Shown one piece after another: positions 4,986-63,597 of a stretch of DNA of 64,000 nt; position 1 is the first letter of the stretch, and every line of letters begins with the position of its first letter. Where the stretch lies: the NCBI GenBank assembly GCA_944384535.1, contig CALWTS010000031.1, positions 71,461 through 135,460 of the forward strand. Reading direction: 5' to 3'. The notes under the pieces are model-generated. The model did no database searches, was not told the DNA's origin, and was given only the letters and a program-made list of their open reading frames with translations. The DNA is from an uncultured Clostridia bacterium. GTDB lineage: Bacteria > Bacillota > Clostridia > Christensenellales > UBA1242. The position numbers and the translations under genes were made by a program.

Positions 4986-6818
4986 TTAAATTTCACCTCT
5001 TAAAACCTTTCCACGTTCTCTAAGGCGCATATTATGATCGAGGATAATTTTTCTAATTCTAAGACTTTTTGGAGTAACTTCTAAAATTTCATCATCAGCG
5101 AGAAACTCTATATCATCTTCTAGACTCATCTTTCGAGGTGGGGTAAGTCTTAGCGCTTCATCAGAACCTGAAGCACGACAATTTGAAAGATGTTTTCTTT
5201 TGCAAACATTGACAACAATATCATCTCCTTTTGGATTAGCTCCAACAACCATTCCTGCATAAACAGGGACTCCAGGTCCTATAAACAAATTTCCTCTTTC
5301 TTGTGCGTTAAATAAACCATATACTATAGATTCTCCACTTTCATGAGCAATTAAAGAACCGTAATCTCTTCTTTTAATCTCACCTTTCCAAGGTTCATAA
5401 TCATAGAAAATAGAATTTATAACACCTTCCCCTTTTGTATCAGTTAATAATTCACTTTTAAAGCCAAACAAACCTCTTGATGGAATAAGAAATTCCATTT
5501 TCATTCTATTTCCGTGTGGTGTCATTTGCACCAACTCACCTTTTCTAATTCCCATTTTTTGCATAACTGTCCCAGTACAATCTTCGGGAACATCTAAAAA
5601 CAATCTATCAATAGGTTCACATTTTACTCCGTTAATTTCTTTTATTAATACCTTTGGCATTGAAACTTGAAATTCATATCCATCTCGACGCATATTTTCA
5701 ATAAGTATTGATAAATGCATTTCTCCCCTACCGCTTACTTTAAACTGCTCTGCGGTTCTTCCATCTTCAACTCTTAATGATAAATCTTTAACAGCTTCTT
5801 TATATAACCTATCTCTTAAATGTCTTGATGTAACAAATTTCCCTTCTTTACCAGCAAAAGGACTATCATTTACCATAAAAGTCATTTCAACACTTGGTTC
5901 AGCAATTTTTACAAATTCTATTGGTTCAACATTTTCACTTGCACAAATGGTGTCTCCAATTTGGATTCCCTCCAAACCAGCAACACATACAATTTCTCCA
6001 ATATTTGCGGTTTGTACAGGTGTTTTCTTTAAACCTTCAAAAACAAATAAACTTACTACTTTAGATTTAATTTTTTTATTTTGGTCATGATAATTACATA
6101 AAACTACATTTTGCCCAACACTTAAACTACCTCGACTAATTTTACCAACTGCAAGTTTTCCAACATAGTCATTATGTTCAGCAGATGAAACAAGCATTTG
6201 ACATGGAGCCTTATCGTCTCCTTCTGGAGCAGGTATATATTCAATAATTTTTTCAAAAAGAGGATTCATGTTTTTTCCCATAATGTTTTTATCAATACTT
6301 GCAATACCTGCACGGGCAGATGCAAAAACAAATGGAGAGTTTAATTGCTCTTCATCTGCATCAAGCTCTAAAAACAATTCAAGAACTTCATCTATAACCT
6401 CATTAATTCTTGCATCATATCTATCAATTTTGTTTATAACAACAATAACTTTTAATTTTAAAGCAAGAGCCTTTTCTAGAACAAATCTGGTTTGAGGCAT
6501 AGGACCTTCATAAGCATCTACTACAAGCAAAACGCCATCAACCATTTTTAAAACACGTTCTACTTCTCCGCCAAAATCTGCATGTCCTGGAGTATCAATA
6601 ATATTTATTTTTACATCATTGTATAAACAAGAACAGTTTTTAGATAAAATAGTAATTCCTCTTTCTCTTTCCAAAGCATTTGAATCCATTACCCTATCTT
6701 CAACAACCTGATTATCTCTAAACACACTTCCTTGTTTAAGAAGTTCATTAACTAATGAAGTTTTTCCATGATCTACATGTGCAATAATTGCAATATTCCT
6801 AATCTTTTCGTTTTTCAT
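4986..6818 (-). CDS. typA: Translational GTPase TypA/BipA
   Basis: IRNIAIIAHVDHGKT, ERERGITIL, DTPGHADFGGEVER, NKID, GRGEMHLSILIE. Confidence 0.97.
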   Translation of the reverse strand: MKNEKIRNIAIIAHVDHGKTSLVNELLKQGSVFRDNQVVEDRVMDSNALERERGITILSKNCSCLYNDVKINIIDTPGHADFGGEVERVLKMVDGVLLVVDAYEGPMPQTRFVLEKALALKLKVIVVINKIDRYDARINEVIDEVLELFLELDADEEQLNSPFVFASARAGIASIDKNIMGKNMNPLFEKIIEYIPAPEGDDKAPCQMLVSSAEHNDYVGKLAVGKISRGSLSVGQNVVLCNYHDQNKKIKSKVVSLFVFEGLKKTPVQTANIGEIVCVAGLEGIQIGDTICASENVEPIEFVKIAEPSVEMTFMVNDSPFAGKEGKFVTSRHLRDRLYKEAVKDLSLRVEDGRTAEQFKVSGRGEMHLSILIENMRRDGYEFQVSMPKVLIKEINGVKCEPIDRLFLDVPEDCTGTVMQKMGIRKGELVQMTPHGNRMKMEFLIPSRGLFGFKSELLTDTKGEGVINSIFYDYEPWKGEIKRRDYGSLIAHESGESIVYGLFNAQERGNLFIGPGVPVYAGMVVGANPKGDDIVVNVCKRKHLSNCRASGSDEALRLTPPRKMSLEDDIEFLADDEILEVTPKSLRIRKIILDHNMRLRERGKVLRGEI

Positions 6819-6954
6819 TTTATTTTATCCCTTTTAACCGATATATTTTAGCATAATAAAAGCAATTTTACAAGTAAGATAAAATAAATTCTAGCAAAAT
6901 CAAAAATGAAACAAAAAAAAGAGCTTATTAAGGACTATAAACTTTGAAACTAGC

Positions 6955-6990
6955 AAAAAAATGAACCTAGAAATTTCTAGGTCATTTTTT
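6955..6990. terminator. Intrinsic terminator downstream of the AAA ATPase gene
   Basis: AAAAAAATGA-A-CCTAGAA/TTCTAGG-TCATTTTTT stem with flanking A/T tracts. Confidence 0.6.
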
Positions 6991-8782
6991 ATTCTTCTTC
7001 AAATTGTTTAAGTCTTCCTATATCTTCATTAGATACACTTGATTTTAATTCTTTTGAAACATTTAACGCATCTTCCATAGTTATTAAATGTTCTTCGCCA
7101 GTCTTAATACTTTGATTTATGGCTTGCATCTTCAGCCTTTCACAAAACTCTGTAATATCTGCGCCATTAAATCCGTTTGTTAATTTTGCTAATTCTTCAA
7201 AATCTAGTTCTTCAGTTGGAATACCTTTCAATTTTATTTCAAACAATTTTATTCTTGCTTCTTTGTCTGGCAATGGTATATAGATTTTTTCATCAAATCT
7301 TCCTGGTCTTAGAAAAGCACTATCTATTGACCAAGGCTTATTTGTTGCAGCAATCACAACAATAGTCGAGTCATTTGCAGAAGTTCCAACACCTTGCATT
7401 TCGGCAAGAATTTCCGGAACTAAATCATTATTCCCATTGTCTGCACTTTCTGTTCTTTTTGAGCCAATCGCCTCAAATTCATCAAAGAATATAACTGCTC
7501 TTTGGGCTTTTCTTGCTTTTGTAAAGATTTCTTTAACTTTCTGCTCAGATTCTCCATACCATTTTGACTTTATATCCGAGCATTTAACTGGCAAAAACAA
7601 AGCATCAACTTCATTAGATGCGGCTTCTGCAAACATTGTCTTTCCAGTTCCTGGCAATCCATACAGAAGAATTCCACCACCAGCTTTCTTACCAAATTTT
7701 TTGTATAACTCTGGGTGTTCAAAAGGCAAAATTACTTTTTCTCTAAAGGCATCTTTTGCTTTATCAAGACCTGCAATATCGTTAAATGTTATAGAACTTG
7801 TTTTAACTTTTTTATTGCTGTCATTAGATTTTTTACTTGATTTTTGCAACACCGAAGAATCTCCACCAGCGTAAGCGACTATAGCATTTATCAGATCAGA
7901 TTTTTTTGTTCCAGACGCAACAATACCTATTTTATCACAATACTCTGCCAAATCATCTTTTCTAATTTGTTGTAATGCACTTTTGTTTGTTCCACATTCA
8001 CTAACTAATGCCGTTAGTTTTTTATAATATTTTTCTTCCTTTTTATGTTCAATTTTCTCACTCATTTTTCCAAAAGGATTCAAGTTATTCATATCTAACA
8101 ATGCTTTTATTCCAGACATCAAAAGACATAATAAGACTGTCGCAACAACTCCAATTAAACATATTATTAACGGAAACCAATTTGCCGAGCCACTCACAAA
8201 AGGAGATATAAAACTTAAACCAAGAATTACTGCAGTTCCTATCCAAGTTCCTACACTTTCAAAAATATCTGACAATTCTAAATCTTTAAATAAAATAATA
8301 AAAAGATAAACTAACGCCAGTATAATAGGAGCAATGATTATTATCAGCCACCAAGTTTGATAAGTATTCCAAAGGTTATCAAATGTAGCAGTCCACGAAT
8401 CAAGTTCCAATTTGTCTATATTCCCGTCAACAACTATATAACTATTTCTTGTTCCATTATTATTAGCTTTAACACCAAAATCCCAATAAAATTTCACATT
8501 TTTAACAAACTGATTATCTTTATACAACCTAAAAGTGCAATCTTCTTTTATCATATTATATATGGTATTATTTTCAAAATATAGCAAAAAATCAATTCTT
8601 GTTGTGTCATTCTCAGCATTATATGTGTATGTAATTTCTTTTGAAGTTGCACAACCAGTTTGAGTTTTATCTGTTGATGCACAACCAGTAAATAAAGTCA
8701 TAACAAAAAATAATACAACAAATGCTAGAAATATTTTTAATATTAAACTTTTTCTATTATTAAGAGTTTCTAAATGTTCCAT
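6989..8782 (-). CDS. Membrane-anchored AAA+ ATPase (CDC48/Vps4-like AAA domain, N-terminal lipobox, TM helices, SAP/HeH-like segment)
   Basis: Walker A GLPGTGKT, SKWYGESEQ pore loop, Walker B FFDEFE, SRH AATNKPWSIDSAFLRPGRFD; LFTG-C lipobox. Start moved to ATG 8782 because the longer ORF start reads through the non-coding hairpin. Confidence 0.85.
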   Translation of the reverse strand: MEHLETLNNRKSLILKIFLAFVVLFFVMTLFTGCASTDKTQTGCATSKEITYTYNAENDTTRIDFLLYFENNTIYNMIKEDCTFRLYKDNQFVKNVKFYWDFGVKANNNGTRNSYIVVDGNIDKLELDSWTATFDNLWNTYQTWWLIIIIAPIILALVYLFIILFKDLELSDIFESVGTWIGTAVILGLSFISPFVSGSANWFPLIICLIGVVATVLLCLLMSGIKALLDMNNLNPFGKMSEKIEHKKEEKYYKKLTALVSECGTNKSALQQIRKDDLAEYCDKIGIVASGTKKSDLINAIVAYAGGDSSVLQKSSKKSNDSNKKVKTSSITFNDIAGLDKAKDAFREKVILPFEHPELYKKFGKKAGGGILLYGLPGTGKTMFAEAASNEVDALFLPVKCSDIKSKWYGESEQKVKEIFTKARKAQRAVIFFDEFEAIGSKRTESADNGNNDLVPEILAEMQGVGTSANDSTIVVIAATNKPWSIDSAFLRPGRFDEKIYIPLPDKEARIKLFEIKLKGIPTEELDFEELAKLTNGFNGADITEFCERLKMQAINQSIKTGEEHLITMEDALNVSKELKSSVSNEDIGRLKQFEEE

Positions 8783-8876
8783 AATTTTACCTTTAATAAA
8801 AATATCAATTTCATTATAACATATAAAATTGCAAATTGTGCTAATAAAATATAAATAATATATAAATTTTATTATT

Positions 8877-8947
8877 TGGCATTTAGGCGTGTGCTTGTCT
8901 TGATACAAGTCGGTGTCGCTTCGCTCCACCGAAAGACAAGCACACGC
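8877..8947 (+). repeat. Hairpin repeat copy 1; putative rolling-circle double-strand origin
   Basis: 15-bp stem GCGTGTGCTTGTCTT/AAGACAAGCACACGC enclosing an inner CGGTG..CACCG hairpin. Contains CTTGATA (8899-8905), the phiX174/pC194-type nick motif. Near-identical inverted copy at 53155-53222. Confidence 0.75.
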
Positions 8948-9231
8948 TAATAATCCAATTGTGTTACAAAAAGAGCGGTTGCTGGCAGAGCGTAACGCAA
9001 TCCGCTCTTTTGTTTTTTCTCTCTTTTTCTAGTATAAACGAATATTCTTTGTTGTCAATGTTAAATTGAATGTCTAAAAATTTGCAAATTGAAAATTATA
9101 ATAACAACCTATGACAACGGCAGAAGTATTCGTTTTTTTTGCAATTAAGAGAGAATTAAGCGCAAAAGAAAACATAGGTGGTTTTTACCTATGTTTCTCT
9201 TTAATATTCTGCTAGTTTCAAAATTGCTTGC

Positions 9232-10110
9232 CTAAGCACTCCTTTTTTTTCTATTTTTTTTTATTTTTATAATTAAAAAAGATAACAATATAAATAATAA
9301 TGTTATAAAAATTGCAAATACATACCACCAGCCATAATTGATTATTAATAGATAAATAGATACCAAATTTTCATCATTTATATTTTCAAACTCAACTGTC
9401 CAAATGTGATAAAAAATGTTATTGTTCGAAAATTGATAATTTGCATTAGATTGTATTTTATCAAAAACAGTAGAATAACTATAGATAAAACTAGGTTTAT
9501 AATTGTTCTTAATATAAGATTCAAATGATAAACCTTGAGAAGAATTTATAAACTTTTGAGCATAAATTTCTCCTATAGTTTTTTCCTCTCCATTCATTGT
9601 TGATTTGTTTGAAAAAATAAATTTTCCGTTTGAGATTTTTTTATTATAAAAAATATTTCCTTCTGATGGAACATTGCTAGATGAGTTGTTTCCATTACTA
9701 TTGTAATAACTCCAAGCCTGCAAGGAACTAAATACAACACTAAATCCTATTACCTTTTGATCACTATTGTAAGTTACATCTGATAGCAACACTCCTTTAT
9801 TAATTTTAAATTCCTCAATTGGATTTTGCAGGTAAGTCAAAGCATAATTAAATAAAAAATTATTTCGAATCTCAACAATCTCTTCCTTTAGGTTTTGTTT
9901 AAATATTTCAAAATCCTTTTCATTTGATAAAGAAATTATTTTGTCCTCATCTAACGAAAAATATAGCATTTGCTTAACTTGACTTTCACCAATATCTAAA
10001 GCAAAAACTATAAAATCATCAGTAGTATCATATAAAATAGAATTATTTTGAAATCCAGATAAAAATAAAAAAGAGAATATCAATATAATTATGAATGAGT
10101 ATTTTTTCAT
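9232..10110 (-). CDS. Exported protein with C-terminal TM anchor
   Basis: 292-aa ORF with a signal-like N-terminus and a C-terminal TM helix followed by a basic tail. Confidence 0.7.
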   Translation of the reverse strand: MKKYSFIIILIFSFLFLSGFQNNSILYDTTDDFIVFALDIGESQVKQMLYFSLDEDKIISLSNEKDFEIFKQNLKEEIVEIRNNFLFNYALTYLQNPIEEFKINKGVLLSDVTYNSDQKVIGFSVVFSSLQAWSYYNSNGNNSSSNVPSEGNIFYNKKISNGKFIFSNKSTMNGEEKTIGEIYAQKFINSSQGLSFESYIKNNYKPSFIYSYSTVFDKIQSNANYQFSNNNIFYHIWTVEFENINDENLVSIYLLIINYGWWYVFAIFITLLFILLSFLIIKIKKNRKKRSA

Positions 10111-10158: not shown

Positions 10159-13100
10159 TTACTTTGTAATTGCCGCTTTATAAGTAGTTCCACTAACCAA
10201 ACTAACAACTAATTTGTACCCAGTTGATCCGCAATTAATTTGCATTTCCGTTAAAGCTTTTGTTGTTATATTAACTATTCCACTACCAATATTCGAATAA
10301 ACTGATCCTTTGATAGTAGGTATGCTAGAATAACTACTAAAACATTTAATATTTGAAGTATCAACTATATTATTAATTGTTCCGCCTAAAAGATTATATG
10401 AAATTCCGCTAGATCTTAATGTTGCAAAACTAGAGTTTTTTGTAAAACTTCCATTATTATAAACATACTCTAATGTGCCATTATCATTTGATAATGTAAT
10501 TCCTACAAAATAAGCTGTCACTTCCGCAGAACCTGATGTATTAATTACAAAATTACCATCATTTCCACAAGCAGATATCTTTCCTAAATTAATTATACTA
10601 ATTCCAGAACTAATTACAATATTATTGGTAACTGTCCCTGTAAAAATTTTATTTCCACTATTGAAACAACCTACGATACTTCCATTACTGGTGTTAAAAG
10701 CACATATTCCAGCGTAAGCGACCTTCAAAACTAATCGTTGTGCCATCGTATATGTAAAATCAACGGTATTTTTAGAATTCATAATTTGTCCATAATTAAT
10801 AGAAACAATAGATGAAATTATTACATTATTTCCATAACCATTACCATTAATATTTTCAAGATTAAATTCTGTTAAAGAAACATTATCAATATTTCCATAA
10901 TTATATAATGCCAGTGGAGCAAATAGAATATTGTTGTTTGAAAGTTTATTAAATGATAATTTGTAACTAATTATTAAATTTTTAATAGTTGCAGTTTTAT
11001 CTATTTTTTTAAAAATTGATGCAAATTTATTAAATGAAACACTGCCCATGCCAGAAACATTTGTAGAATACGCATCCATGTCGTAAATTGAATTCGTTTC
11101 AATTGTTATTTTATGATTATTTCCATCAAGAATGCCATAGAAAGTTTCCATTAAATGAATATAAATTTCGGCTCCAGTTTCTTCATCAAGTTGTGAAACA
11201 TAAAGGTCACTATTTTTTATAACGATATCGCTTGTTAATTTAAAATAGAATGTTTGACCTTCTAAATTTCTCTTACTTATATTTAAAAAGTCTTGAGAAT
11301 TATTTATTAGATAAGGATTATTTTTGGTTCCATCTCCGCCATCAAAAACATTAAATGTTATAACTTCATTGAGATTAATAGCATCACTAAATAAGTAAAT
11401 ATTTTGCATTGTATCATCTATTAATCTTACCCTTATCATAAACATACTTACTTCACCACTTCGTCTAGGCATATAGAAATAATTATAAGTATATGCATCA
11501 TCTCCTTCTGAACCTGAAACAGTATCGGGTTCTTTAATACCATCAATTAACATACTTACCCAGAACTGGTATCTTCCAGAATTTTCTGATTTCCACTTCC
11601 ATTCAAATTTGGCATCATTTTCATTCCATGAAACAGATAAATCACTTGCATCAGTATTATAGATATTGATTTTAACTATATCACTATTCAACAGTAATTT
11701 AGGGTTTGATTGTGTACTATCTTGTGCATCAATAACTTGTATAGATAAAACCTTCCCTACCATAGACGTATCTAATACAAATATTTGTTCTCCATTTTTG
11801 GATAGATATTTAACATTTTCTTCAACACCTTCAAAATTTTCAATTGAAACTTTTATTTGATAACAATAATAGTCATTATTTATACTTATTGCAGTAAAAT
11901 ACTTTGAAAAATCAATATATGTCTTGCCATCTTCATTAAGTTTAATTTCATAATATGCTTCAGAAACTTTTGTAAGCTTATTAATAGAAGAAATACATAA
12001 CGGTTTTGAATTTATTTTACCTTCGCAATAAATGTAAATTTTAATATCAAATTCTCCAATATTGTTTAATTGACCTTGATCAAGTGTAAATGTAACAAAT
12101 TTGTAATCTTTATTTCCTTGAGCAGAATCATCGGTAAATGAGAAACTTCCTGTCAATTTAATAGTATAAATTTTGGATAATCTTTCGTATTCTGCAAAAA
12201 TTGAAATTCTGTTGTTGATATCTTCACTAGAACCTGTATCTTCATAAAGTTTTTTATCAATAACAAAATTAATCTTCCCTTCATAAATTCCTGTTTGATT
12301 TTCTGTCAAGAATGGAGATTCTGTTCTTACTAAATATCCTTTTTCGGTACCATATAAAATCGTTTCTTGACTTCTTAAAACAGCAGTCTTGTTTGTATCT
12401 TCACTGTTATAATAAACAGTTTTTTCAAAGATGTAATATTCACCTTCAACAGTGTGTTTTGCTGAACTATTATTTTCATCCGAAGCTACTCCTGCTAAAG
12501 CATTAACAATAATTCTATAATAAGAATACTTCTCACTAATATAATTTGAAGACAATGTGTTTGATTTTGTATAGTAAACATCTTCATATCCTTGTTTAAC
12601 AAAAGTTTCCCCATCAACGTCTAAAACATAATACAAAACAGAAACTTCGTAAATCAACTCGCCTTTATTTCCATCAGCATCTACGAAATCTAAATCCTCT
12701 AAAGCTGTCCAACTTATATCACCACCTACTGCATTTATCAAGCTTATCTTAGAAATCATTTTTGCTTTCAAATATGTAACATCTGATGATAATACCGGAT
12801 ACCTACTGCTACCAACAAAATTTAATAAATGGTCAGCAGATTGCGTTTGTGTTGAAAAAGTTTCATCACTTTCCTCAAATCCTCCAGAATTACCATTCAA
12901 ATAAGCTTGAAATTGACTAGCTGTTAACTCTGATGGATATATGATATTTCCTTCTTCATCTTTTGAACCAATTATATAAGAAACTCCATTTGAATCTTTT
13001 GTAAAATCGTTTTGATAATAATATCCTTCATCACCTTTATCATAGCCATCACTTAAACTAATATTATTTCCCATATTAAATTTCAATGTTGGCATATAAG

Positions 13101-16100
13101 TTACTGAAATTGAGCTAAATGTTACTTGAATATTGTTATTAACAACTTTTAATATTGGTTCATCTAATTTGTAAACTTCTAATACAGCATAAGTATCACT
13201 TTCTATATTCATTAAATTGTAAGATATAGATCCATTGATTGATAAAATTAAGTATTCATAAAGTCCACTATCCTGCAAATTAATTTTTGCGACACCATCT
13301 GAAAAATTAGTTGTCATTGAATCCGGTGCCAATCCCTCCTTGACATACCTTACTAAAACCTCAAAAGTATTATCTAAACCTGCTTCAATTATGAATTGTC
13401 CATTTTCAAATTTTATGTTTTCTTGTATCAAATCCAAATAATTAATACTAAAAATAGCAGATTTACCGTTCACAACATAATCATTTTGTTCATGATTTGA
13501 TTCTTGTGACTTGTTTGAAACTAAATATGCAAAAATGTCTACATTAATTAAAGTATTAATAGGTATCAAATTTTTATCATCACAAGATTTTCTTAATGAA
13601 GTCAAATTTAATTTGAAACCAGGAATATCAAAAGAAGATTCTATATTGGATAAAATTGGAATATTTTCATCACTAGGCTCTATTTTTTCATTATTATATG
13701 ATATATCCCACTGATTACCTGAATATTGAATAATAAATTCTATAATTTTTTCTTCTTTGTTAGATGTTGTATATCTAAAAACCATTTTGTAAGACTGTGC
13801 AGTAACTATACTCAATAGGTTAGGTTCTCCATCATTTCCCCAGTTCTTAACATAGTAAGTTGAAACAGGTAAAATATTCACAGTATATTGACTTTTTTCT
13901 TGTATCTTTTCATTTTGTAAAGAAATTTCTGGCGCTGCAGTAACATAAACTTTACAAGATACAGATGACTCTGAATCGAGAAATACTCCTATTCCTGTTT
14001 GTTTCACGCTTACTGCATAATCCCCTGCTGGAATTTGACGCGCAATATCATCAAGTAAAATTGAATTATCACCAATTCCTTTATTTGTAGAAACAAGAGT
14101 AGTTACAAAAGTCTTAAAATTTTTTATTGCATTATTTTCTTCTCCACTTATTGACTGATAATCTTGCACTAATAAGTCAATATAAGACTTTTTTTGAGCA
14201 GAATAATCTAAATGAACAGAAATTTGGATATCTGGGAATAATTGAGATGCATTAACTACTATTTCATAACTTGTATTTGTCAAGGCACCATCTTTCTTTA
14301 ATGTGAATTTTAACACTAAATTTGTAACATTTGTTCCAAATTCACCAATACTAAAATATATAGGATCTTTCCATACTTGATTAAGTAAATCATAAATCTT
14401 TGTATCACTACCCTTAGGTTTATTATAGTGATCAATAATTGTTTGCATAAAACTTGTTTCTAAAAATTGCTTTTCGTTAAAGACTAATTTACCATCTTTG
14501 ACAGCAATGCCAATTGGTTGAGTATATTTTGTTGTAGAAACCGAATTTGATATATCAGAACTTATAATATTTGACTGTGAAGAAAAAGCAATAATAGAAA
14601 TATTATAATTATCTCCTCCATCAAGCATAACATCTAATAAATTCAAAGCTTTTTTATAAGAAATAATTTGAATTTTTGTCTGATCAATAGTATTTTCAAA
14701 AACAACATAAAATCCAGTTGGCTGAACATTTAAATATTGTTCGTTAACATCTATTTGATTCCATTGCCAATATAAAACATTATCTTCTATAATTATACTA
14801 TCTTGTTCTTGATTGGAAATAGGGGCTAATTTATAAACCTCAAAAGCGTATTCAGAATATTGCTCGAAAACATCATCATTCTTACCTATACGAGAAATTA
14901 AGAAATTAACTTGTCCAAACTGAATTTCTCCAATAATTTCATTGACAGATACTCCAAAACATTCTGTATAAGTAAATCCAACTTCTGTTCCTTTATCTTT
15001 GGTAAATTCAATTATAGAATTATCTGAATTTGTTTTCCAATATCCTAAACAGTCATCTGCTGTAAAATATTTAACATAACTATCTTCTTGTGTTTGTATA
15101 AGAACTCTAAAAGAAATTGTATTATCATTTTTGCTAAAAATTATATAATCTTGTGTTAAATTTGATTCTCTTTTTAAACTAGGTTCACTATCTATACAAT
15201 AATCAAATGTTAAATTTATCCAATCAGCATCAACAGAACCACTTTTTCGTACAGTAAAGTCAAATGATAAAGTTTGTCCTTGCAGTGTTAGTACATCGTT
15301 ATACAACTTTATTAAATCAATCATTGCAATTTTAAATTGGTTACTCGTATCCTCCTTAAATGGAGTAAATGATTTAATTATATAGTCGCTGCCTTTTTTA
15401 TATCTTACACTAAAAACAAGATCATTAAAATCATCAACAATTAATGTTAAGACAATGTTTCCATTGTTGTCTACACTTACATTATCTATTCCTTCAAGTT
15501 TATAACCTTTAATAACAACCTCAAGACTAGAAGGTAATTTTTGGAATGAATTATCAAATGCTACTATTTTAACAATATATGCTCCAATTTTTCCACTTAA
15601 ATATTCATTAGTCATAAGATTGATTTCTTTTGAAAAATTTTCCTGATCGACAATTAGTAATTTTTCTATTATTTGATCTTCTGTTGTAATTTGAATTAAA
15701 AATGATTGATTTTGATTGTCTGTAATGGTTAATACTCCAGAATCAGAAATTGCAATATCTTCAACACTCTTCAGTCTTTCAATATCAATAGACTTCACTT
15801 CAGAACTTATATTTCCCGTATTTATTACCTGAATATCTATTTTATTCAGTCCACTTTTAATAACATTTTTAAATAAAGTTAACTGATATGTTTGATCTAA
15901 ACTATCTAAAATTAATTTGTAATCATCATGGTTATCACCATTTTTTAATAACAATTCAACTTTTTCATCATTTTCATAATTAATAGTAATTTTAAATTTA
16001 ATATTTTCAAAAGTTGACCACTCATCATGCCATTTTATAACAGTATAAGCATTAAGTTTTTGATCTAATATTGTAGCTTTAGTTGTGTCATCAAAAATTT

Positions 16101-19100
16101 CCACTGTTGTATCGCTAATTTGATTTAACTTAAATAGATTTAAACTTGATGATGCTTTTTCTCCAAAATAACCTATTGCGTTACCATTTTGAGAAGATAA
16201 AGAATAATTTTCTGCTATGTTGGCGGTAATTATTATTTCAACATTATCATTAAGTTTCGCACTAATTTTATTTTCTATATCTTGAATAGAACAGCTTAAC
16301 TCCTTAGTAACAATATAATAATCCTTATCATTAATTATTTTAATTGTATATTCAACAGGATTAATGTCTGCCCCAGATAAATCTTTTACAACATTGTTCC
16401 ATACAATGGTATCATCTTGCAAAGAGACATCAAAATTGCAATCACTTAAATTATATAAAGTAAAAGTTGAGATATTTGAATTGATAAAATAATTTGTTTC
16501 ATTTAAATTTTTATAAATTAATTGAACATTAAATTCGTTTACCCCTAAGAAGTCTTTTATTTTAATTTTAGCTATATTCCCACCCTGTGAATAATCTACA
16601 TTATCAACACTTCCATTAACTTGAACCTCTTTAATATTTGCAGTGTTTGACAAAATAGGAATTGAAACTACCCAATCTTCACCATCTTTGGCGATATTAA
16701 TATTTGTTATAGTCTGTAATTTTTTGATAGAAATAACATTTGAATTATTTGAGTCTAAATATTGCTTATTATTACTTTTAACATATACATTTTTAGCAAC
16801 CAACCAATCAATGTCATTAATATCGTTTAAATTTAGACTAGTTGCAGAATAGTTTTCTATTTTTAAAACATCATCTACATATATATCATATGAAGTATTT
16901 TCAGAGACATTATTCCAACTTAAAATCATACTCTCACTATCAAAAGCAATTGTTGGGGCATCCAACTTATATATATCTAGTTTATTCTTACCTAATAAAG
17001 TTGTACCGTTGTCAGAAGGTAAATAATAAATGTTTCCAATTTCTCCGATTTTATGAGAGAACAACTCTACTTGTATATAATCAAGCATCCTATACGCATT
17101 TTTAAAATCCTGATTATTTTGTAATAAATCATTAATCTTTTCTTGCAAATTAAATGATAAACTATTATCTTCTGTAAAAAATCTATTATAATAATTACCA
17201 TTTTGGGAATTAACAATTGTAATAGTTACATAATAATTCTCTATTTTACTGCTATCTACACTATTAAATGTAATTATACCATCAGAATAACCAATCGCAG
17301 ACGGTGCTGATACCCTTTGAAAATTAATCTCTTTGAGTTCACTATTTAAATAATAATGATCATCTTTATTAGTAGTAGCAACATACATGATTGTCATTTC
17401 AAATTCTGTATCAAAAATTGAATAGTCAATCATATCTATAATTTTTTCATTGCTTTTATTTATGATTTCCCCATTTAATTTAATGACAGGATAAACTGCA
17501 TTGTCAATCATTTGAACTTCTAAGTATTCATGTATTTTTTTATCATTATCAAATTCGTCAAAAACCTCACTAATGTTAAATGTAGGTGTTGCAAGTTTTG
17601 TAATAACCAATTTGTAAGGATCACTATTTAAATGAATGTTTCCATCAAAAGAAGTTCCACTTGTTGCAATTATAGAAATGTTGTAATCTTTTGCTAATTC
17701 GAATCCTTCTTCAAAAGTATATTCTACATATTCTGGAAGATCGCCAGCGCCTAAAATTACTCCTCCATCATATTTCCCATCAACATAAATAGAGTATCCA
17801 CCACCAAATTCAACCGTGTTGATAATTAATCGATTTTGTCCTAAATTATTGTCAAAAACAACACTAGGAGTTTCTAAATCTTTTGTTACAATAATGTTTT
17901 TTGAATAAACATTTTGAATATTATTAAAATTTGAATCTAAATATAAATTAGTATTTTCTGATTTTGATGCAATTTCAATAACATAATAACCAAATTCAAG
18001 AGTTTCTTTAATTTGATTTGCTTTTGTATTCCCTGTAATGATAGCTTCTGAACTTTCATCTTTGATAAAATTTTTGTCTGTTTTGTAGATTTTATATTCA
18101 TAGTAAGTCATATCGTTATCTAAGATATTCCACTTAAAAGAACCATTTATTTGCTCTTCACTAATATCCGATACGATAGATAAAATGTCAAGTTCTTTAA
18201 CAATTTCTATTTTTGTAGAACATTCTATGTTTTGTTCATTTATCCTGTAGGCAACAATTTTGATAAAATATTTATCTCCAAAACTTTGATATCCTTTTAA
18301 ATTATTAAGACGTATCTCAATATATGTATTTTCATCTTTAACTTCGTAATTATTCGTATTTACCAATTCATCGTTAACATAAACTAAATAACTGTTTGCA
18401 TTATCAATTTTATCAACTTTTATAATAGAAATATTACTATAACTATCATAACTATGCTCTACGTAATTTAATTCATCTAAAACATAAAAGTCTAAGACAT
18501 AATCATCAGAGTTAAGTACATTTGAAGTTTTATTTCCATTAATTTCAATTTGTTGAACCTTTCCATCAACAACTGTTGGTAATGCGGTTATCCTAAAAGT
18601 ATATTTGCCAACATCTAAACCATTAAGATCTATAGTTTTTTCTAATCCATCTTGAGTATTAAAAATTATGCTTTCATCAGCCCAAGTAATTCTATAGTTT
18701 TCTACATAATCATTTTCCTTAAAACTAAATCTAACTTCTTTATTTTTAAAAGAAACTTCTACACTTGGAATTTGCAATTTCGCAACTAATAACTGTTCCT
18801 TAACCTCACTATTTAAATAATAAATATTATCTAAATTTTTACCACCTTTTGATATTACACTTACAAAATAAACTCCATATTCTTTACCTTCTAAAATATA
18901 ACTATTTTCAAAAGCATCTGCAGAATATTCTATAATTTCCTTTTGACCAATTGTTTGATTGTCAACTATCTCGAAGCAATAACCGCTTGCATTTTGAATT
19001 TCGTTAAAAGACAAGAAACCATTATTATTCTTTAGATTATATGTCAAATCAGGATAATCCAATTTTTGAAGGTAAACTATGGTTGATGATGACATTAATT

Positions 19101-19944
19101 GATTTGTTAAATCTTTGGAAACAATCTTAATAGTTACATATTTGTCAATGGAATAAATTTGATAATTTATCGTAATAAAATTATCAATAATATTTTCATA
19201 AATCTTTATACCATCAATATAAACATCATACTGAACATTCTGTTGTTTATCCCAAGACATAACAACTTCAGGTGTACCAAAATCATAACTATATGTAAAA
19301 TCAATATTTTCTAATATTCCAACTACACCCACATTAATAATTTCTTCTTGTGAAAATTCAGAATCATCTGTTGTTATATTATCCCCTAAAGCTCTAACCT
19401 TAACAAAATATGAACCTTTTTCTTCAAAAATAAAATAATTATCATCTATTATTTTGTAGACATACTCTATTCTTGAAAAATCTGTTGTGTCATCTATTAG
19501 ACAATATCCAATTTCATATTGTGTAGCGTAAACTTCATTTCCATCTACTACTGTAAATGATTTCTCCCAAGTATAAAATCCATTTTCCTCTAAAATGAAA
19601 CCTTTAGGAGTAATTTGATTATATTTTACTCTAACCTTAACAGAAGCAATCGTATTGTCATTATAATTTGCAAATACATACGCCTCTCCAGACTCAACAG
19701 CTTTAAAATTTGAGTTATCTTCTTTTTTTATAATATTTTCATTAGAAGATACAAATGAAATTTTATTTTTTTCAACTCCAGAAACATTTAAAGATTGAGA
19801 AAAATCTATTGAATCACCAATTGAAACAATATATTCTTTTTTATCAAAATTACCAATTACACTTGATTGACTGTTACAAGCTGTAAAACAAAATATCGTT
19901 AACAATGACAACATTATAACAGCAAATATATTTTTTTTCATCAA
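10159..19944 (-). CDS. Giant surface lipoprotein with repeated beta-sandwich (Ig/FN3-like) modules and a C-terminal GLUG/M26-like beta-helix region
   Basis: 3261-aa ORF with lipobox FTA-C; recurring KLxxP / xSW / DSxxS patterns; C-terminal FDGGDGTKNNPYLI...FKLTSDI...FYGILDGNNHKI followed by G/N-rich repeats. Confidence 0.75.
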   Translation of the reverse strand: MMKKNIFAVIMLSLLTIFCFTACNSQSSVIGNFDKKEYIVSIGDSIDFSQSLNVSGVEKNKISFVSSNENIIKKEDNSNFKAVESGEAYVFANYNDNTIASVKVRVKYNQITPKGFILEENGFYTWEKSFTVVDGNEVYATQYEIGYCLIDDTTDFSRIEYVYKIIDDNYFIFEEKGSYFVKVRALGDNITTDDSEFSQEEIINVGVVGILENIDFTYSYDFGTPEVVMSWDKQQNVQYDVYIDGIKIYENIIDNFITINYQIYSIDKYVTIKIVSKDLTNQLMSSSTIVYLQKLDYPDLTYNLKNNNGFLSFNEIQNASGYCFEIVDNQTIGQKEIIEYSADAFENSYILEGKEYGVYFVSVISKGGKNLDNIYYLNSEVKEQLLVAKLQIPSVEVSFKNKEVRFSFKENDYVENYRITWADESIIFNTQDGLEKTIDLNGLDVGKYTFRITALPTVVDGKVQQIEINGNKTSNVLNSDDYVLDFYVLDELNYVEHSYDSYSNISIIKVDKIDNANSYLVYVNDELVNTNNYEVKDENTYIEIRLNNLKGYQSFGDKYFIKIVAYRINEQNIECSTKIEIVKELDILSIVSDISEEQINGSFKWNILDNDMTYYEYKIYKTDKNFIKDESSEAIITGNTKANQIKETLEFGYYVIEIASKSENTNLYLDSNFNNIQNVYSKNIIVTKDLETPSVVFDNNLGQNRLIINTVEFGGGYSIYVDGKYDGGVILGAGDLPEYVEYTFEEGFELAKDYNISIIATSGTSFDGNIHLNSDPYKLVITKLATPTFNISEVFDEFDNDKKIHEYLEVQMIDNAVYPVIKLNGEIINKSNEKIIDMIDYSIFDTEFEMTIMYVATTNKDDHYYLNSELKEINFQRVSAPSAIGYSDGIITFNSVDSSKIENYYVTITIVNSQNGNYYNRFFTEDNSLSFNLQEKINDLLQNNQDFKNAYRMLDYIQVELFSHKIGEIGNIYYLPSDNGTTLLGKNKLDIYKLDAPTIAFDSESMILSWNNVSENTSYDIYVDDVLKIENYSATSLNLNDINDIDWLVAKNVYVKSNNKQYLDSNNSNVISIKKLQTITNINIAKDGEDWVVSIPILSNTANIKEVQVNGSVDNVDYSQGGNIAKIKIKDFLGVNEFNVQLIYKNLNETNYFINSNISTFTLYNLSDCNFDVSLQDDTIVWNNVVKDLSGADINPVEYTIKIINDKDYYIVTKELSCSIQDIENKISAKLNDNVEIIITANIAENYSLSSQNGNAIGYFGEKASSSLNLFKLNQISDTTVEIFDDTTKATILDQKLNAYTVIKWHDEWSTFENIKFKITINYENDEKVELLLKNGDNHDDYKLILDSLDQTYQLTLFKNVIKSGLNKIDIQVINTGNISSEVKSIDIERLKSVEDIAISDSGVLTITDNQNQSFLIQITTEDQIIEKLLIVDQENFSKEINLMTNEYLSGKIGAYIVKIVAFDNSFQKLPSSLEVVIKGYKLEGIDNVSVDNNGNIVLTLIVDDFNDLVFSVRYKKGSDYIIKSFTPFKEDTSNQFKIAMIDLIKLYNDVLTLQGQTLSFDFTVRKSGSVDADWINLTFDYCIDSEPSLKRESNLTQDYIIFSKNDNTISFRVLIQTQEDSYVKYFTADDCLGYWKTNSDNSIIEFTKDKGTEVGFTYTECFGVSVNEIIGEIQFGQVNFLISRIGKNDDVFEQYSEYAFEVYKLAPISNQEQDSIIIEDNVLYWQWNQIDVNEQYLNVQPTGFYVVFENTIDQTKIQIISYKKALNLLDVMLDGGDNYNISIIAFSSQSNIISSDISNSVSTTKYTQPIGIAVKDGKLVFNEKQFLETSFMQTIIDHYNKPKGSDTKIYDLLNQVWKDPIYFSIGEFGTNVTNLVLKFTLKKDGALTNTSYEIVVNASQLFPDIQISVHLDYSAQKKSYIDLLVQDYQSISGEENNAIKNFKTFVTTLVSTNKGIGDNSILLDDIARQIPAGDYAVSVKQTGIGVFLDSESSVSCKVYVTAAPEISLQNEKIQEKSQYTVNILPVSTYYVKNWGNDGEPNLLSIVTAQSYKMVFRYTTSNKEEKIIEFIIQYSGNQWDISYNNEKIEPSDENIPILSNIESSFDIPGFKLNLTSLRKSCDDKNLIPINTLINVDIFAYLVSNKSQESNHEQNDYVVNGKSAIFSINYLDLIQENIKFENGQFIIEAGLDNTFEVLVRYVKEGLAPDSMTTNFSDGVAKINLQDSGLYEYLILSINGSISYNLMNIESDTYAVLEVYKLDEPILKVVNNNIQVTFSSISVTYMPTLKFNMGNNISLSDGYDKGDEGYYYQNDFTKDSNGVSYIIGSKDEEGNIIYPSELTASQFQAYLNGNSGGFEESDETFSTQTQSADHLLNFVGSSRYPVLSSDVTYLKAKMISKISLINAVGGDISWTALEDLDFVDADGNKGELIYEVSVLYYVLDVDGETFVKQGYEDVYYTKSNTLSSNYISEKYSYYRIIVNALAGVASDENNSSAKHTVEGEYYIFEKTVYYNSEDTNKTAVLRSQETILYGTEKGYLVRTESPFLTENQTGIYEGKINFVIDKKLYEDTGSSEDINNRISIFAEYERLSKIYTIKLTGSFSFTDDSAQGNKDYKFVTFTLDQGQLNNIGEFDIKIYIYCEGKINSKPLCISSINKLTKVSEAYYEIKLNEDGKTYIDFSKYFTAISINNDYYCYQIKVSIENFEGVEENVKYLSKNGEQIFVLDTSMVGKVLSIQVIDAQDSTQSNPKLLLNSDIVKINIYNTDASDLSVSWNENDAKFEWKWKSENSGRYQFWVSMLIDGIKEPDTVSGSEGDDAYTYNYFYMPRRSGEVSMFMIRVRLIDDTMQNIYLFSDAINLNEVITFNVFDGGDGTKNNPYLINNSQDFLNISKRNLEGQTFYFKLTSDIVIKNSDLYVSQLDEETGAEIYIHLMETFYGILDGNNHKITIETNSIYDMDAYSTNVSGMGSVSFNKFASIFKKIDKTATIKNLIISYKLSFNKLSNNNILFAPLALYNYGNIDNVSLTEFNLENINGNGYGNNVIISSIVSINYGQIMNSKNTVDFTYTMAQRLVLKVAYAGICAFNTSNGSIVGCFNSGNKIFTGTVTNNIVISSGISIINLGKISACGNDGNFVINTSGSAEVTAYFVGITLSNDNGTLEYVYNNGSFTKNSSFATLRSSGISYNLLGGTINNIVDTSNIKCFSSYSSIPTIKGSVYSNIGSGIVNITTKALTEMQINCGSTGYKLVVSLVSGTTYKAAITK

Positions 19945-38508: not shown

Positions 38509-38573
38509 TATATTTTTTACCTCTTTTAATTTTTAGTTTATTTTAAAAAATATAGAGCCTTGATAGGCTCTAT

Positions 38574-39123
38574 TTGAAGGTAATAACGCAAGTAAACCTT
38601 GTGCCATAGGTTCGGTCGGATTTCCCATTCTCGCACTCAACGTCACCGTTTAAGCAGTTTCCTTTTAAGCAAGACATAACACCGAATCGCCACTTAGGAC
38701 ACACTATAATCCTCACGTTATCTACAGAACGTAACAGTCTAGAAGTTTTCCTTAACATCTTAAAATATTATTCTCCTGTTTTGCAAATACTGTTTCATAA
38801 GCAGGTACATTTTTTATTGGCCGATAAAATTTGCACGTTTAAACTTAATCCCCAAGCATTCACTCAAGGCAGGCTACACTGCACACGACTTTTACCGCAA
38901 TACAGGTTCTTCTCAGTGAGTAATCGCTCACCCTTTCTGAGTCTCCACGATAATTGGGACGGATACTATATGCCGTTATAGTGCGCCCAAAAATCTTAAC
39001 TTCCAGCACCAGCCCCAGTTTGGGCAACCAAAGCAAGCACCAGAAACTTCACAGATATGCCAACCGATGCCATTAAATTCATCTTCCTAATATTTTAAAA
39101 ATGACTAGAATACTGCACCTTCA
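38574..39123 (-). ncRNA. ole: OLE RNA (ornate large extremophilic RNA)
   Basis: About 550 nt, GC-richer than its surroundings and lacking a credible ORF. Minus strand reads GGTGCAGTATTCTAGTCA...TGAAGTTTCTGGTGCT...GCCCA...TGGGGCTGGTGCTGGAAGTTAA, matching recalled OLE 5' segments; closing stem TGAAGG/CCTTCA; followed by oapA. Confidence 0.88.
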
Positions 39124-39131
39124 CACTTATA

Positions 39132-39160
39132 ATTATAGCATACTTTTGTAAAAAATGCAA
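39132..39160 (-). promoter_or_regulatory. Sigma-A promoter for OLE RNA
   Basis: TTGCAT-17nt-TATAAT with extended -10 TG on the minus strand. Confidence 0.7.
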
Positions 39161-49692: not shown

Positions 49693-49798
49693 TGAAATAA
49701 ATAAAAAACAGACTAAATTAGTCATAGAAAATTGAAACTTGCAGTTTTTAGACTAAAAGATAAAGAGCATATATTTGAATATGCTCTTTTTTCTTTGC

Positions 49799-51307
49799 CT
49801 AGATTACTGAATAGACATCATAAGTTAAAGTTTTTGTTCTAGTTGTTCCACCTTTGAAAGTTCTAGTTATTTCAAGTGTTTCAGTAAATGCATAACTTTT
49901 AATTGGTACATATTCGGTATTGCTTTGGTTTATTGAATAGTTAAGTCCAATTTCTATTTTATCTTCATATACTTTAACAAACTTTAGAAATAAATCTATT
50001 GCTTTGTCAGGACATTCTTTCATTGTTAATTTAAAGAAATTTTGTATATCTTCTCTTGTTAATTCATAGCTAACTTTAGATTCTTCAATTATCAATTTTT
50101 CGCTTAAACCTTTTCTTTGTGTTTCAAGTTCTTCCAATCTAGATTTTGTTGTTTCAGTGATTATTCCTTTTTCTATTGCAGACATTATATTTGAAATAGC
50201 TGTATTTACTCTTTGCAAGTCAGATTTAATGCTTATAAGTGAATTGTTGTTCTTTGTTCGTTTCTTGTTTTCTTCATAGATTAAATCGGTTATTGTGTCT
50301 AGATTCTTTTGAATTGTGAATTGTTGTTTAAAGAATTTATCTACAACACCTTCTATAAAGTTCTTTTCAGTAATTCTTGTTAAGCAGTTGTCATCTTTCT
50401 TTGTTGAAATACATTTGTAATATCTTAAATAGTTTCCATTTCTAGATTTTGTTGAAAATGGATACATTTTTCTATTACAATGACCACAATATAGTTTGTC
50501 TTTAATTCTAAAGATTTCGTGATTATCTTTTCTGCAACCATATCTAGTTAAATTCATTCTTTTTTGTACTTTATCAAATAGTTCTTTAGTTATTATTTGT
50601 GGGTAAATTTTATCATATACTTTGCCATTAACTGAATATTCGCCAGTATATAGTTTTCTTTTGAGCATATCTCTTATTGTTTGTGGTATAAACTTATGTC
50701 CATTTCTTGTTATATTTTCTTTTTCAAAATCTCTTGATATTTGCAATATTGTTTTTCCACTAGCATAATCTTCAAATATTCTTTTTAAAATTATTGCTTC
50801 TTCTTCATTTATCTTTAACATTTTATTCTCCTTTATATAGCCGAAAGATACATCTCCTATAACATGTCCTTTCATCCTTGATTCGTGAAGTCCACGACTT
50901 ACTTTTTGAGCAAGTTCTTCACTAAAGTATTGATTCATTCCTTCGAGTAATGATTCAAGCAAAACTCCTTCAGGTGTTTCTGGAATATTTTCCATAGCGG
51001 ACAAAAGTTTTATTCCATTATCTTTTAAGTGTTTTCTGTGTATTGCAGCTTCATATTTGTTTCTTGCAAATCTGTCTAATTTATACACCAAAACATAGCT
51101 CCATTTTTTGTTGTTGCTATCTTTTAACATTCTTTGGAATGAATATCTTTCATCTGTTGTTCCACTTATTGCTCTGTCGATATATGAATCAACGATGATG
51201 ATGTTGTTGCGTTTTGCAAAGTCTTGACATACATGTACTTGACCTTCAATACTTTGTTCAGTTTGGTTTGTACTGGAATATCTAGCATATATTACTGCTG
51301 TTTTCAT
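49799..51307 (-). CDS. Large serine recombinase
   Basis: AVIYARYSS (catalytic Ser), VYKLDRFARN, recombinase domain, zinc ribbon CGHC...YYKC, coiled coil. Confidence 0.95.
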   Translation of the reverse strand: MKTAVIYARYSSTNQTEQSIEGQVHVCQDFAKRNNIIIVDSYIDRAISGTTDERYSFQRMLKDSNNKKWSYVLVYKLDRFARNKYEAAIHRKHLKDNGIKLLSAMENIPETPEGVLLESLLEGMNQYFSEELAQKVSRGLHESRMKGHVIGDVSFGYIKENKMLKINEEEAIILKRIFEDYASGKTILQISRDFEKENITRNGHKFIPQTIRDMLKRKLYTGEYSVNGKVYDKIYPQIITKELFDKVQKRMNLTRYGCRKDNHEIFRIKDKLYCGHCNRKMYPFSTKSRNGNYLRYYKCISTKKDDNCLTRITEKNFIEGVVDKFFKQQFTIQKNLDTITDLIYEENKKRTKNNNSLISIKSDLQRVNTAISNIMSAIEKGIITETTKSRLEELETQRKGLSEKLIIEESKVSYELTREDIQNFFKLTMKECPDKAIDLFLKFVKVYEDKIEIGLNYSINQSNTEYVPIKSYAFTETLEITRTFKGGTTRTKTLTYDVYSVI

Positions 51308-51484: not shown

Positions 51485-52360
51485 TTAATAACCCTTTGGT
51501 AGCTTATCTATTAACTCTTTGCTAACAGTTCCTAAAACCTCTCCAGTAGAAAAGTTCAAACATCTAAAGTTGTCAAATAGCAGTATCTTTCTATCTTCTT
51601 GTCCGATAGTGCAAACAACATCATCTTCGAGTATATCTGTTATGAAAAATGTCTGTAAGTGTTTTGAATAGATTACTTTTTCACCAGTTTTTCGTATATA
51701 TTTAAGCATATACATAATGGATTCTTGAGTATGATTAGCATTTTCTATTTTGCTAAAGTCATTTCTTCCAAAACTCTCCAAAAAGAATATGTTTTGGTGT
51801 GTAATTTGCATTTGATGAGTTTTGGTTGAATAATCTCTAGTTTCTATAATTTCGCCAACCATTTCGGCTATTACAAATATTCCATGAAAATGTAATCTTT
51901 TTTGTTCAGGGCTTCGTTCAAAGACTCCTATATATTTCCAACCTTTGCGAGTGGAAAGGTGTCTTAAGCAATTTAGAAATTTAACTCTAAATTCTTCTTC
52001 AGTGAGTTTTGAAGAATCATAAGTGAAAGTGCAGAAGTAGTTCCATTGTTGTAAATTGGCTTTTCGGAATAATCTTGTAAGTCTTACAATTCTGTTTCGT
52101 TTTTCTTTTTCAATTACTTTGTTTACGATTTCTTTAGTTTTTTCAATATCTTTTACTTTTTCGTTTAGTTCATTTACAATTCGTTCTTTCTTTTCCTGTT
52201 TGGTTTCATCAGTACATTCATTTAACATTTCTTTAACTTTCGATTCTGTTTCAGTAGGTTTTACTGATTTATGCTTTTTCTTTTTCCAACTTTGAGTTGT
52301 TTTTGGTATGCCAATGTAATGACTACCATCGAAATATACTTTAGTTTCTTGATAGTCCAT
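51485..52360 (-). CDS. Rolling-circle replication initiator / relaxase (HUH endonuclease)
   Basis: Motif I FCTFTY, motif II RLHFHGI, motif III YMLKYIRK (two tyrosines); SD AGGAG before ATG 52360. Confidence 0.85.
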   Translation of the reverse strand: MDYQETKVYFDGSHYIGIPKTTQSWKKKKHKSVKPTETESKVKEMLNECTDETKQEKKERIVNELNEKVKDIEKTKEIVNKVIEKEKRNRIVRLTRLFRKANLQQWNYFCTFTYDSSKLTEEEFRVKFLNCLRHLSTRKGWKYIGVFERSPEQKRLHFHGIFVIAEMVGEIIETRDYSTKTHQMQITHQNIFFLESFGRNDFSKIENANHTQESIMYMLKYIRKTGEKVIYSKHLQTFFITDILEDDVVCTIGQEDRKILLFDNFRCLNFSTGEVLGTVSKELIDKLPKGY

Positions 52361-53145: not shown

Positions 53146-53154
53146 TATTTAGAA

Positions 53155-60676: not shown

Positions 60677-60696
60677 AGCGACTCCTTTTCTTTTGT

Positions 60697-63595: not shown

Positions 63596-63597
63596 AT

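Follow-up and report, generated by a model that had tools for sequence, protein, structure and literature searches.

At positions 6929-9236 of a 64,000-nt stretch of an uncultured Clostridia genome (contig CALWTS010000031.1, positions 71,461 to 135,460; the whole stretch is called the window here) lies a 2,304-bp unit which is bounded by a pair of TAAG tetranucleotides and a perfect 13-nt inverted repeat, and which is mobile between sites and between species. The unit appears to be a non-autonomous cassette that carries the attP half-sites of a multi-targeting large serine recombinase and is moved in trans by the enzyme of a larger sister element. We consider this reading, taken as a whole, to be probable, with appreciable room for doubt. 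The unit belongs to a large family of small cassettes in gut Clostridia which lack a recombinase of their own, occupy transcription-terminator loops and probably rely on the serine recombinase of larger sister elements. The host genome (1.24 Mb in 50 contigs, about 27% G+C) was obtained from chicken-gut metagenomes; the labels of related genomes include Clostridia, Christensenellales and Candidatus Caccovivens.

The unit had been proposed from an earlier inspection of the window (the original prediction), and direct reading reproduced its coordinates: TAAG at 6929-6932 and 9233-9236, and the 13-nt repeat TTTGAAACTAGCA at 6943-6955 with its reverse complement at 9210-9222, exactly 10 nt internal to each TAAG. 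It was also correct to describe the unit as discrete and mobile and as lacking genes for a recombinase or Rep; its sole long open reading frame (ORF) is that of an ATPase. The parts of the cassette and of its target are listed below in window coordinates, with the strand where one was assigned.

6913-6928: left half of the target, an A-run and a short stem-half (host sequence, outside the mobile unit)
6929-6932, plus strand: left TAAG, with the proposed 2-nt crossover core AA at 6930-6931
6933-6955, plus strand: P' (L-type) arm, a 10-nt inner arm and the 13-nt repeat TTTGAAACTAGCA
6964-6983: bidirectional terminator hairpin immediately internal to the left arm, where the cargo gene ends
6989-8782, minus strand: cargo gene for a membrane-anchored AAA+ ATPase of 597 aa (Pfam, PADLOC)
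8877-8953: conserved 60-70-nt hairpin, candidate rolling-circle origin
8966-9010: terminator-like hairpin 2, with a conserved loop, between an A-run and a T-run (from the module alignment)
9031-9058, minus strand: sigma-70-like promoter TTGACA-16 nt-TATACT, directed inward to the hairpins and the cargo
9037-9135: long imperfect inverted repeat (arms 9037-9062 and 9108-9135) with TTGACA in each arm and a loop of variable length
9170-9196: small terminator-like hairpin inside the right arm, its stems with compensatory changes among the module copies
9210-9232, plus strand: P (R-type) arm, the 13-nt repeat as reverse complement and a 10-nt inner arm
9233-9236, plus strand: right TAAG, core AA at 9234-9235, supplying the stop codon of the flanking 292-aa gene
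9237-9250: right half of the target, a stem-half and a T-run (host sequence)

The 13-mer was present in the host genome in 5 exact copies and in 3 copies with one mismatch, all of them intergenic; about 0.1 exact copies are expected by chance, as estimated from the base composition. All 8 copies stand in one context, consisting of an A-run, approximately 7 variable nt, T(A/T)A(G)G, approximately 9 nt and the 13-mer. The motif TTTGAAACTAGCR was detected in 95 of the 154 genomes of the genus and a reversed-pattern control in 21 of them. The boundary observation is real and far beyond chance. Two genomes contain paired end motifs that point the same way and are spaced by about 90 nt (G066:C1:106688 and 106779; G150:C23:7957 and 8047); they may be solo ends or nested remnants.

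The cassette is located between the upstream region of typA/bipA (4986-6818) and the ORF of a 292-aa membrane protein (9232-10110), whose stop falls exactly on the right TAAG: it reads TAG with the cassette and is predicted to read TAA without it. The comparison with relatives for an empty site, which the original prediction had called for, was carried out and revealed the empty site. Homology to the typA region ended near 6884-6893 in 24 of 24 relatives of the genus searched. The distance between typA and the downstream gene was 604 nt in G016 versus 2,919 nt in the source genome, and the difference of 2,315 nt is near the length of the unit. At the place of the cassette G016 has a terminator hairpin flanked by A and T runs, and G010, G017 and G157 likewise have a terminator-like hairpin. 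G141 also lacks the cassette at this site, and its intergenic sequence there contains no clear hairpin.

A full-length, 99%-identical ATPase was encoded in only two of the other 153 genomes of the genus, G141 and G157. The G141 copy of the cassette was 95.1% identical over 2,315 nt (window 6927-9223), and the G157 copy 98.6% identical over 2,018 nt (window 6909-8926), where its contig ends. Both copies reside on contigs other than that of typA and have flanks unrelated to those in the window, and the DnaB-TypA DNA of the source species, G141 and G157 is 63-72% identical. At the three left junctions the sequence is common only from AAGG inward, as expected for unit boundaries at TAAG with a core AA; at the junction itself the G157 copy has only AA in common with the others. 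The sequence corresponding to 6913-6928 differs among the three copies, and relatives have the terminator hairpin with its A and T runs there. Logan contigs of two further studies ceased to match at 6929 (X7 rec 27) and 6928 (X5 rec 18), and others spanned the junctions as in the window (left, X3 rec 9; right, X1 rec 8).

Sibling cassettes with other cargo had been anticipated, and they turned out to be abundant. From 18 loci of relatives and 118 hairpin-bearing loci in public genomes at least 27 complete cassettes of 0.6-3.7 kb were collected, all with one architecture: a P' (L-type) arm, a terminator, the cargo, the 60-70-nt hairpin, a promoter-bearing non-coding module of about 290 nt and a P (R-type) arm. 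The consensus of the L-type arm, read from the siblings, was (T)AAGGGYTATAAAY and then the 13-mer, and that of the R-type arm, read from outside inward, (T)TTAGTCACTYAMT and then the 13-mer. The siblings, too, have a hairpin after the L-type repeat, and the main ORF of 8 out of 10 cassettes runs from the module to the terminator at the L end. An identical dinucleotide was found 11 nt outside both repeats in 26 of the 27 cassettes (AA in 22, AT in 4); the lone exception has a doubtful left end. An identical dinucleotide at both junctions is the pattern left by the 2-nt crossover of a serine recombinase, so that the rejoined site would have the composition 13+11+2+11+13 nt and a length of 50 bp. 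Both the direct reading and the 26 cassettes thus bear out the earlier suggestion that the ends are the two arms of a dyad-symmetric site of about 50 bp.

The cargo of the siblings included a metallo-beta-lactamase-fold hydrolase, a GDSL hydrolase, a GNAT protein, a PnuC transporter, an isochorismatase, a uracil-DNA glycosylase (UDG)-like protein and a radical-SAM protein. The copies of the source genome (G000) could be sorted through contig-end overlaps into four elements, namely the cassette at 6929-9236, the sister element of about 15.8 kb treated below and two others. A second cassette of about 2.05 kb (C40:53470-55527 / C44:1-127; loci L001, L002) has the core AT and carries helix-turn-helix (HTH), UDG-like and tubulin/FtsZ-like genes; it was found with different flanks in G000 and G005 (L032). 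A 10.6-kb element without recombinase or rep was assembled from contig overlaps (C31:1-3347 + C27 + C22:1-~740; L005, L003, L004). It has an L-type arm with the same outer flank at either end and a single hairpin in its middle, as if two cassettes had been joined tail to tail at the hairpin. Its cargo is defence-like (AAA, WYL, PD-(D/E)XK, Macro, an exonuclease with BRCT and TPR, SMODS, DUF6602). No transposase was encountered in any family member examined.

The trio of HTH protein, UDG-like protein and tubulin/FtsZ-like GTPase in the second cassette had no match in PADLOC and possibly represents a system not yet described.

Within one cassette the two outer flanks tend to form inverted repeats of each other, but from cassette to cassette their sequences change; inspection by eye showed a common word of at least 5 nt after the A-run in 15 of 26 flank pairs. 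The target reads as the loop of a short hairpin between A and T runs, that is, of a putative bidirectional terminator. Guidance by an RNA of the bridge-RNA kind was considered and dropped, since variation of the hairpin loops does not follow that of the target flanks.

The larger element to which the cassette was compared extends from 49717 past the end of the contig into the next one, with a total length of about 15.8 kb. Its end at 49717-49744 reads as given previously. The features of this sister element within the window are the following.

49717-49743, plus strand: R-type end of the autonomous sister element of about 15.8 kb, in inverted orientation
49799-51307, minus strand: large serine recombinase of 502 aa (Pfam Resolvase, Recombinase, Zn_ribbon_recom; PHROG integrase, 3.3e-92)
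51485-52381, minus strand: HUH rolling-circle Rep (Pfam PF23343, 1.5e-10; HFH and YMLKY motifs in the translation)
53147-53222: copy of the hairpin in the sister element, in the opposite orientation to 8877-8953
53230-64000, minus strand, continuing beyond the window: cargo (DruE-like helicase, 928-aa protein, N6/N4 methylase, DpnII endonuclease, 440-aa protein, Dam-type methylase)

The 502-aa recombinase had matches in 73 of 121 genomes of the genus at E<=1e-20. The gene of the large serine recombinase adjoins the same kind of end in larger elements: in 11 of 14 loci, one of them with a 97%-identical recombinase (G081), an R-type end was present 58-660 nt past the recombinase stop, and the outer flank was different in every case. 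Of the remaining three loci, one is on a truncated contig and two are those of orthologues with 50-53% identity. A cassette and the helper of G001 are identical in the 13-nt inner arm plus repeat. Rep accompanies only some of the helper recombinases and is absent beside three full-length ones (L045, L046, L049), which makes the recombinase the constant partner. A recombinase of an integrative element was found in the sister element only, not in the cassette at 6929-9236.

Some parts of the original prediction were only partly upheld. The cassette had been described as the backbone of the large element minus rep and recombinase; this holds for the architecture, but in sequence only the hairpin and the end motifs are common to the cassette and the element at 49717. 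The link between the recombinase and this type of end was likewise substantiated, but the proposal that the enzyme encoded at 49799-51307 is the cognate one became doubtful. The inner right arm of the cassette is unlike that of the helper in its own genome and differs by one mismatch from the arm beside the recombinases of G102, G096, G067 and G060. Since its arm is closer to that of the latter clade, the 49799-51307 recombinase may not be the cognate enzyme.

Two genes of the sister element located between the DruE-like and DpnII-type genes, those of the 928-aa (57890-60676, minus strand) and 440-aa (62273-63595, minus strand) proteins, had no Pfam or PADLOC match; their products are candidate partners of the Druantia-like helicase. 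The segment 49113-49700, between a GNAT gene and the R-type end of the sister element, contains short broken reading frames and may be a decayed gene at the insertion site of that element.

Several results weigh against a cassette moved in trans by the serine recombinase of a sister element. The only cognate-type recombinase in the genome is associated with arms that differ from those of the cassette, the 13-mer by 2 mismatches and the inner arm altogether. No recombinase match at E<=1e-20 was obtained in G002 (7 repeat copies, 97% completeness), G006 (4 copies, 99% completeness) or G056 (15 copies, 97% completeness); these genomes fit orphaned non-autonomous units with no helper at hand. The G141 copy has a different inner right arm, and its homology to the window stops at 9223, not at 9236, which indicates that arms are exchanged among family members and do not simply travel with the unit. 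The symmetry of the target was weak in an ungapped flank comparison (7.9 versus 7.0 of 14 positions; 3.4 versus 2.4 for the nearest 8 positions), and palindromy is missing from some target flanks, for example those in G141. Nor was a recombination directionality factor identified. The circular junction that had been predicted was not detected: the pattern of the rejoined site (repeat, 20-28 nt, repeat reversed) was found in none of the viral contigs, none of the metagenome contigs of the Joint Genome Institute (JGI) and none of the 154 genomes of the genus, and Logan contigs of four runs on 6300-9900 included neither a circle joint nor a contig skipping 6929-9236, a weak negative because assembled contigs drop rare forms. 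Similarly, an exact search with 30 nt of the typA start for conspecific empty sites gave no hit in metagenome contigs.

The hairpin at about 8877-8953 recurs in inverted orientation at about 53147-53222, as the original prediction stated, with 96% identity over 69 nt, and at least 118 hairpin loci were found in public genomes. In 23 aligned copies 87.2% of the cells were paired, versus 24-48% in slid controls. The sequence of the outer stem does not vary; that of the inner stem varies with compensatory changes (GC/CG/UA and CG/UA), and this stem ends in a mini-hairpin of the GCGAAGC type, which we take to be unusually stable in DNA. The plus strand contains CTTGATA, presumably the nick-site core known from phiX174 and pC194, which is not conserved across copies; the conserved word, ACTTGTATMA, is on the other strand. 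The hairpin is a candidate rolling-circle origin: the cassette itself has no Rep, the hairpin is common to Rep-bearing elements, and both the proximity of Rep and the breaks in homology fit this assignment without proving it. In four runs (X1, X3, X5, X7) the summed contig depth over the bin 8841-8961 was several-fold that of the flanks (in X3, 90.5 versus 11-14), which fits many hairpin copies in those communities.

Such a role of the hairpin raises the alternative that the HUH Rep moves the cassette there by a rolling-circle or single-strand route (IS91- or Helitron-like, or origin-to-origin recombination), and that the serine recombinase serves the large elements only. A Rep-like gene was indeed present within the fetched locus more often than a recombinase-like gene (37 and 20 of 118 hairpin loci, respectively), and HUH and YxxKY motifs are present in the Rep. 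Between the G000 and G157 copies, homology breaks down within the hairpin, where the 10.6-kb composite element is also joined. The G157 copy (L171) matches the cassette with 98.6% identity in cargo and left arm, but has another variant of the hairpin loop when compared with window 8890-8930, which indicates that cargo and backbone recombine at the hairpin. However, the boundaries of the unit are at the inverted-repeat arms and not at the hairpin, the ends have the geometry of a serine-recombinase site with a common 2-nt core in 26 of the 27 cassettes, the ends are unchanged in helpers that lack Rep, and no cassette encodes Rep. Movement by Rep is therefore unlikely.

Between the hairpin and the right arm, the non-coding module of about 290 nt is conserved as a unit in 33 copies. 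Its hairpins were described by reading the alignment, not by counts. Hairpin 2 occurs among the copies in two fully compensated stem variants. The minus-strand promoter is the best match in the region (11/12), and TTGACA-N17-TAYACT is conserved in most of the modules; a divergent subfamily of other sequence also has an inverted repeat whose two arms contain TTGACA. This promoter within an inverted repeat is, we assume, analogous to single-strand origins with folded promoters. RNAalifold predicted only 4 pairs from the 33-copy alignment because the subfamilies are out of register. Rfam returned no family at gathering score for the cassette, and for the module only chance-level matches at the E-value threshold.

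Conservation of the module also bears on the possibility that the small cassettes are dead deletion remnants of full elements, now immobile, whose spread dates from the movement of the full elements. The many cassettes of G002, G006 and G056 in the absence of a recombinase match would agree with this, as would the lack of a circle or of empty-site polymorphism within the species in contigs of the four runs. Against it, the same recombinase-less 2.3-kb unit occupies three sites in three species with 95-98.6% identity, and the second cassette occupies two sites in two species; independent identical deletions are unlikely to have produced such repeated units. Together with the 33 conserved modules, these observations make the remnant explanation improbable.

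A DNA-inversion switch that flips a promoter segment in phase variation was also considered. The repeats are inverted, a promoter lies between them, serine recombinases include invertases, and 'DNA invertase' appeared as a secondary PHROG match. But what varies at the locus is the presence of the segment and not its orientation, the arms are of different types (L and R), and the core AA is a direct repeat at the two junctions, which favours excision. Moreover, all three copies have the same internal orientation relative to the arms. We regard a switch as very improbable. The last explanation, chance matching of repeats in AT-rich intergenic DNA, was refuted: within the window the 13-mer with up to 2 mismatches was not enriched (6 matches versus 6.05 expected), but exact copies were enriched genome-wide and genus-wide relative to the control, and context and architecture are conserved.

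A non-autonomous cassette moved in trans by a serine recombinase would work as follows. Its ends would be the P' and P half-sites of an attP of about 50 bp, each made of the 13-nt outer repeat and an 11-nt inner arm, with the core AA. The target, the loop of a bidirectional terminator with an A-run and a T-run on its sides, would be recognised through the A and T tracts around the short palindrome. The cassette would form a self-contained expression unit which, from the right end inward, comprises the small terminator, the inverted repeat with its strong inward promoter, the terminator-like hairpin, the conserved hairpin, the ATPase gene, the terminator and the left arm. A recombinase provided by an autonomous sister, such as the 15.8-kb element or a closer-matched helper since gone from the genome, would catalyse crossover at AA and thereby excision and re-insertion. 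The conserved hairpin may serve as the origin for an HUH Rep, in which case the excised circle would be copied by rolling-circle replication.

A more far-reaching reading, which we put forward tentatively as a possibility, is that gut Clostridia with small genomes run a distributed, integron-like cassette economy on a serine recombinase, with excision in trans, amplification by Rep and shuttling between species. Single-gene units with both attP halves, their own promoter and terminators and a rolling-circle origin may be parked harmlessly in terminator loops, from which a multi-targeting recombinase of a helper may excise them in trans and an HUH Rep of the helper may amplify the circles. The goods shuttled between species may include defence genes (the IetA-like ATPase, Druantia, restriction-modification and CBASS (cyclic-oligonucleotide-based antiphage signalling system)-like parts) as well as metabolic genes (PnuC, nicotinamidase and GNAT), and the hairpin may double as a recombination hot spot at which cargo and backbone are reshuffled.

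The staphylococcal and Enterococcus cassette chromosomes (SCC and ECC) resemble this family in being integrative elements of large serine recombinases with accessory genes as cargo, and SCC/ECC elements without a recombinase of their own are said to rely on ccr in trans. The att sites described for ECC are about 50 bp long and have dyad symmetry. SCC and ECC elements use a single site at the end of rlmH and often form arrays of tens of kb, whereas the cassettes described here are 0.6-3.7 kb long, contain mostly one to few genes and are scattered over many terminator loops. Each of them also has its own promoter, terminators and conserved hairpin, and abutting cassette ends (arrays) were found in none of the 154 genomes of the genus.

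Multi-targeting serine recombinases are known from transposition of the TnpX/TndX type. A preprint by Durrant et al. (10.1101/2021.11.05.467528) describes multi-targeting large serine recombinases with a conserved TT core and A/T-rich flanks. The present family is similar in that one recombinase clade acts on many targets; its core is AA/TT or AT and lies between A and T runs. DUF4368, which occurs in most of their multi-targeting clade, is not among the Pfam matches here. The elements described there are autonomous, and the main text contains no occurrence of 'non-autonomous' (10.1101/2021.11.05.467528). The attachment-site tables of Durrant et al. might include helpers of the present clade.

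Integrons are similar in having small, mostly single-gene units, a structured hairpin element, an enzyme encoded elsewhere and diverse cargo that includes defence genes. Their enzyme is a tyrosine recombinase, their attC acts as a folded single strand, and their promoterless cassettes share the promoter of one attI platform. The present cassettes, in contrast, have two duplex half-sites, their own promoter and terminators and dispersed targets, and they are not of the integron type on account of the serine class of the enzyme, the absence of abutting ends and the internal promoter. Cis-mobilizable elements (CIMEs) and other integrative elements in decay, mobilised in cis or trans, as well as miniature inverted-repeat transposable elements (MITEs), are non-autonomous derivatives that keep only the sites for the enzyme of an autonomous relative. 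CIMEs depend on tyrosine integrases and use tRNA or gene-end sites, and MITEs depend on DDE transposases and have no genes; unlike both, the cassettes retain cargo genes, a promoter module and an origin-like hairpin. Nor do they look like DDE transposons or MITEs at their ends, where the repeats are 11 nt inside the junctions, the inner arms are unlike each other and the junction repeat is 2 nt. The Rep resembles that of rolling-circle replicons of the phiX174/pC194 type in its HUH and two-tyrosine (YxxKY) motifs; a rep gene is absent from the cassette.

No description of this cassette family was found in the published literature, supplements being outside the search, and neither the 12-nt end motif nor its reverse complement occurs in the texts of related papers, supplements excluded. 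The combination of self-expressing cassettes of 0.6-3.7 kb with two attP arms, dispersal over terminator loops, an origin-like hairpin and transfer between species was not found in print by these searches. If the cassettes are moved in trans, they represent a second tier of gene mobility, made up of ready-to-express units awaiting a passing helper. Such a tier would explain the exchange of defence and accessory genes by bacteria with genomes of about 1 Mb, across species with only about 70% identity in their core genes. The terminator loop would be a natural safe harbour, and the short, defined arms together with the diversity of targets might be of use for studying or borrowing multi-targeting serine integrases. 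The family also offers a clean system for the co-evolution of non-autonomous elements with helper recombinases and Rep proteins.

The ATPase encoded by the cassette matched Pfam AAA (1.3e-36) and AAA_lid_3, and IetA of PADLOC (5.7e-35), and has a membrane part at its N-terminus. Its ORF extends without a stop to a GTG at 8929, but translation probably starts at the ATG at 8782. It does not form an IetAS pair in the cassette, where only the IetA-like match, over the AAA domain, was obtained and there is no second gene. Directly downstream of the insertion site of the cassette, a single ORF of 3,261 aa occupies 10159-19944 (minus strand). Elsewhere in the window of this genome of about 1.2 Mb and 27% G+C, a full-length OLE RNA was detected at 38561-39137 (minus strand; 359 bits, E 5e-102).

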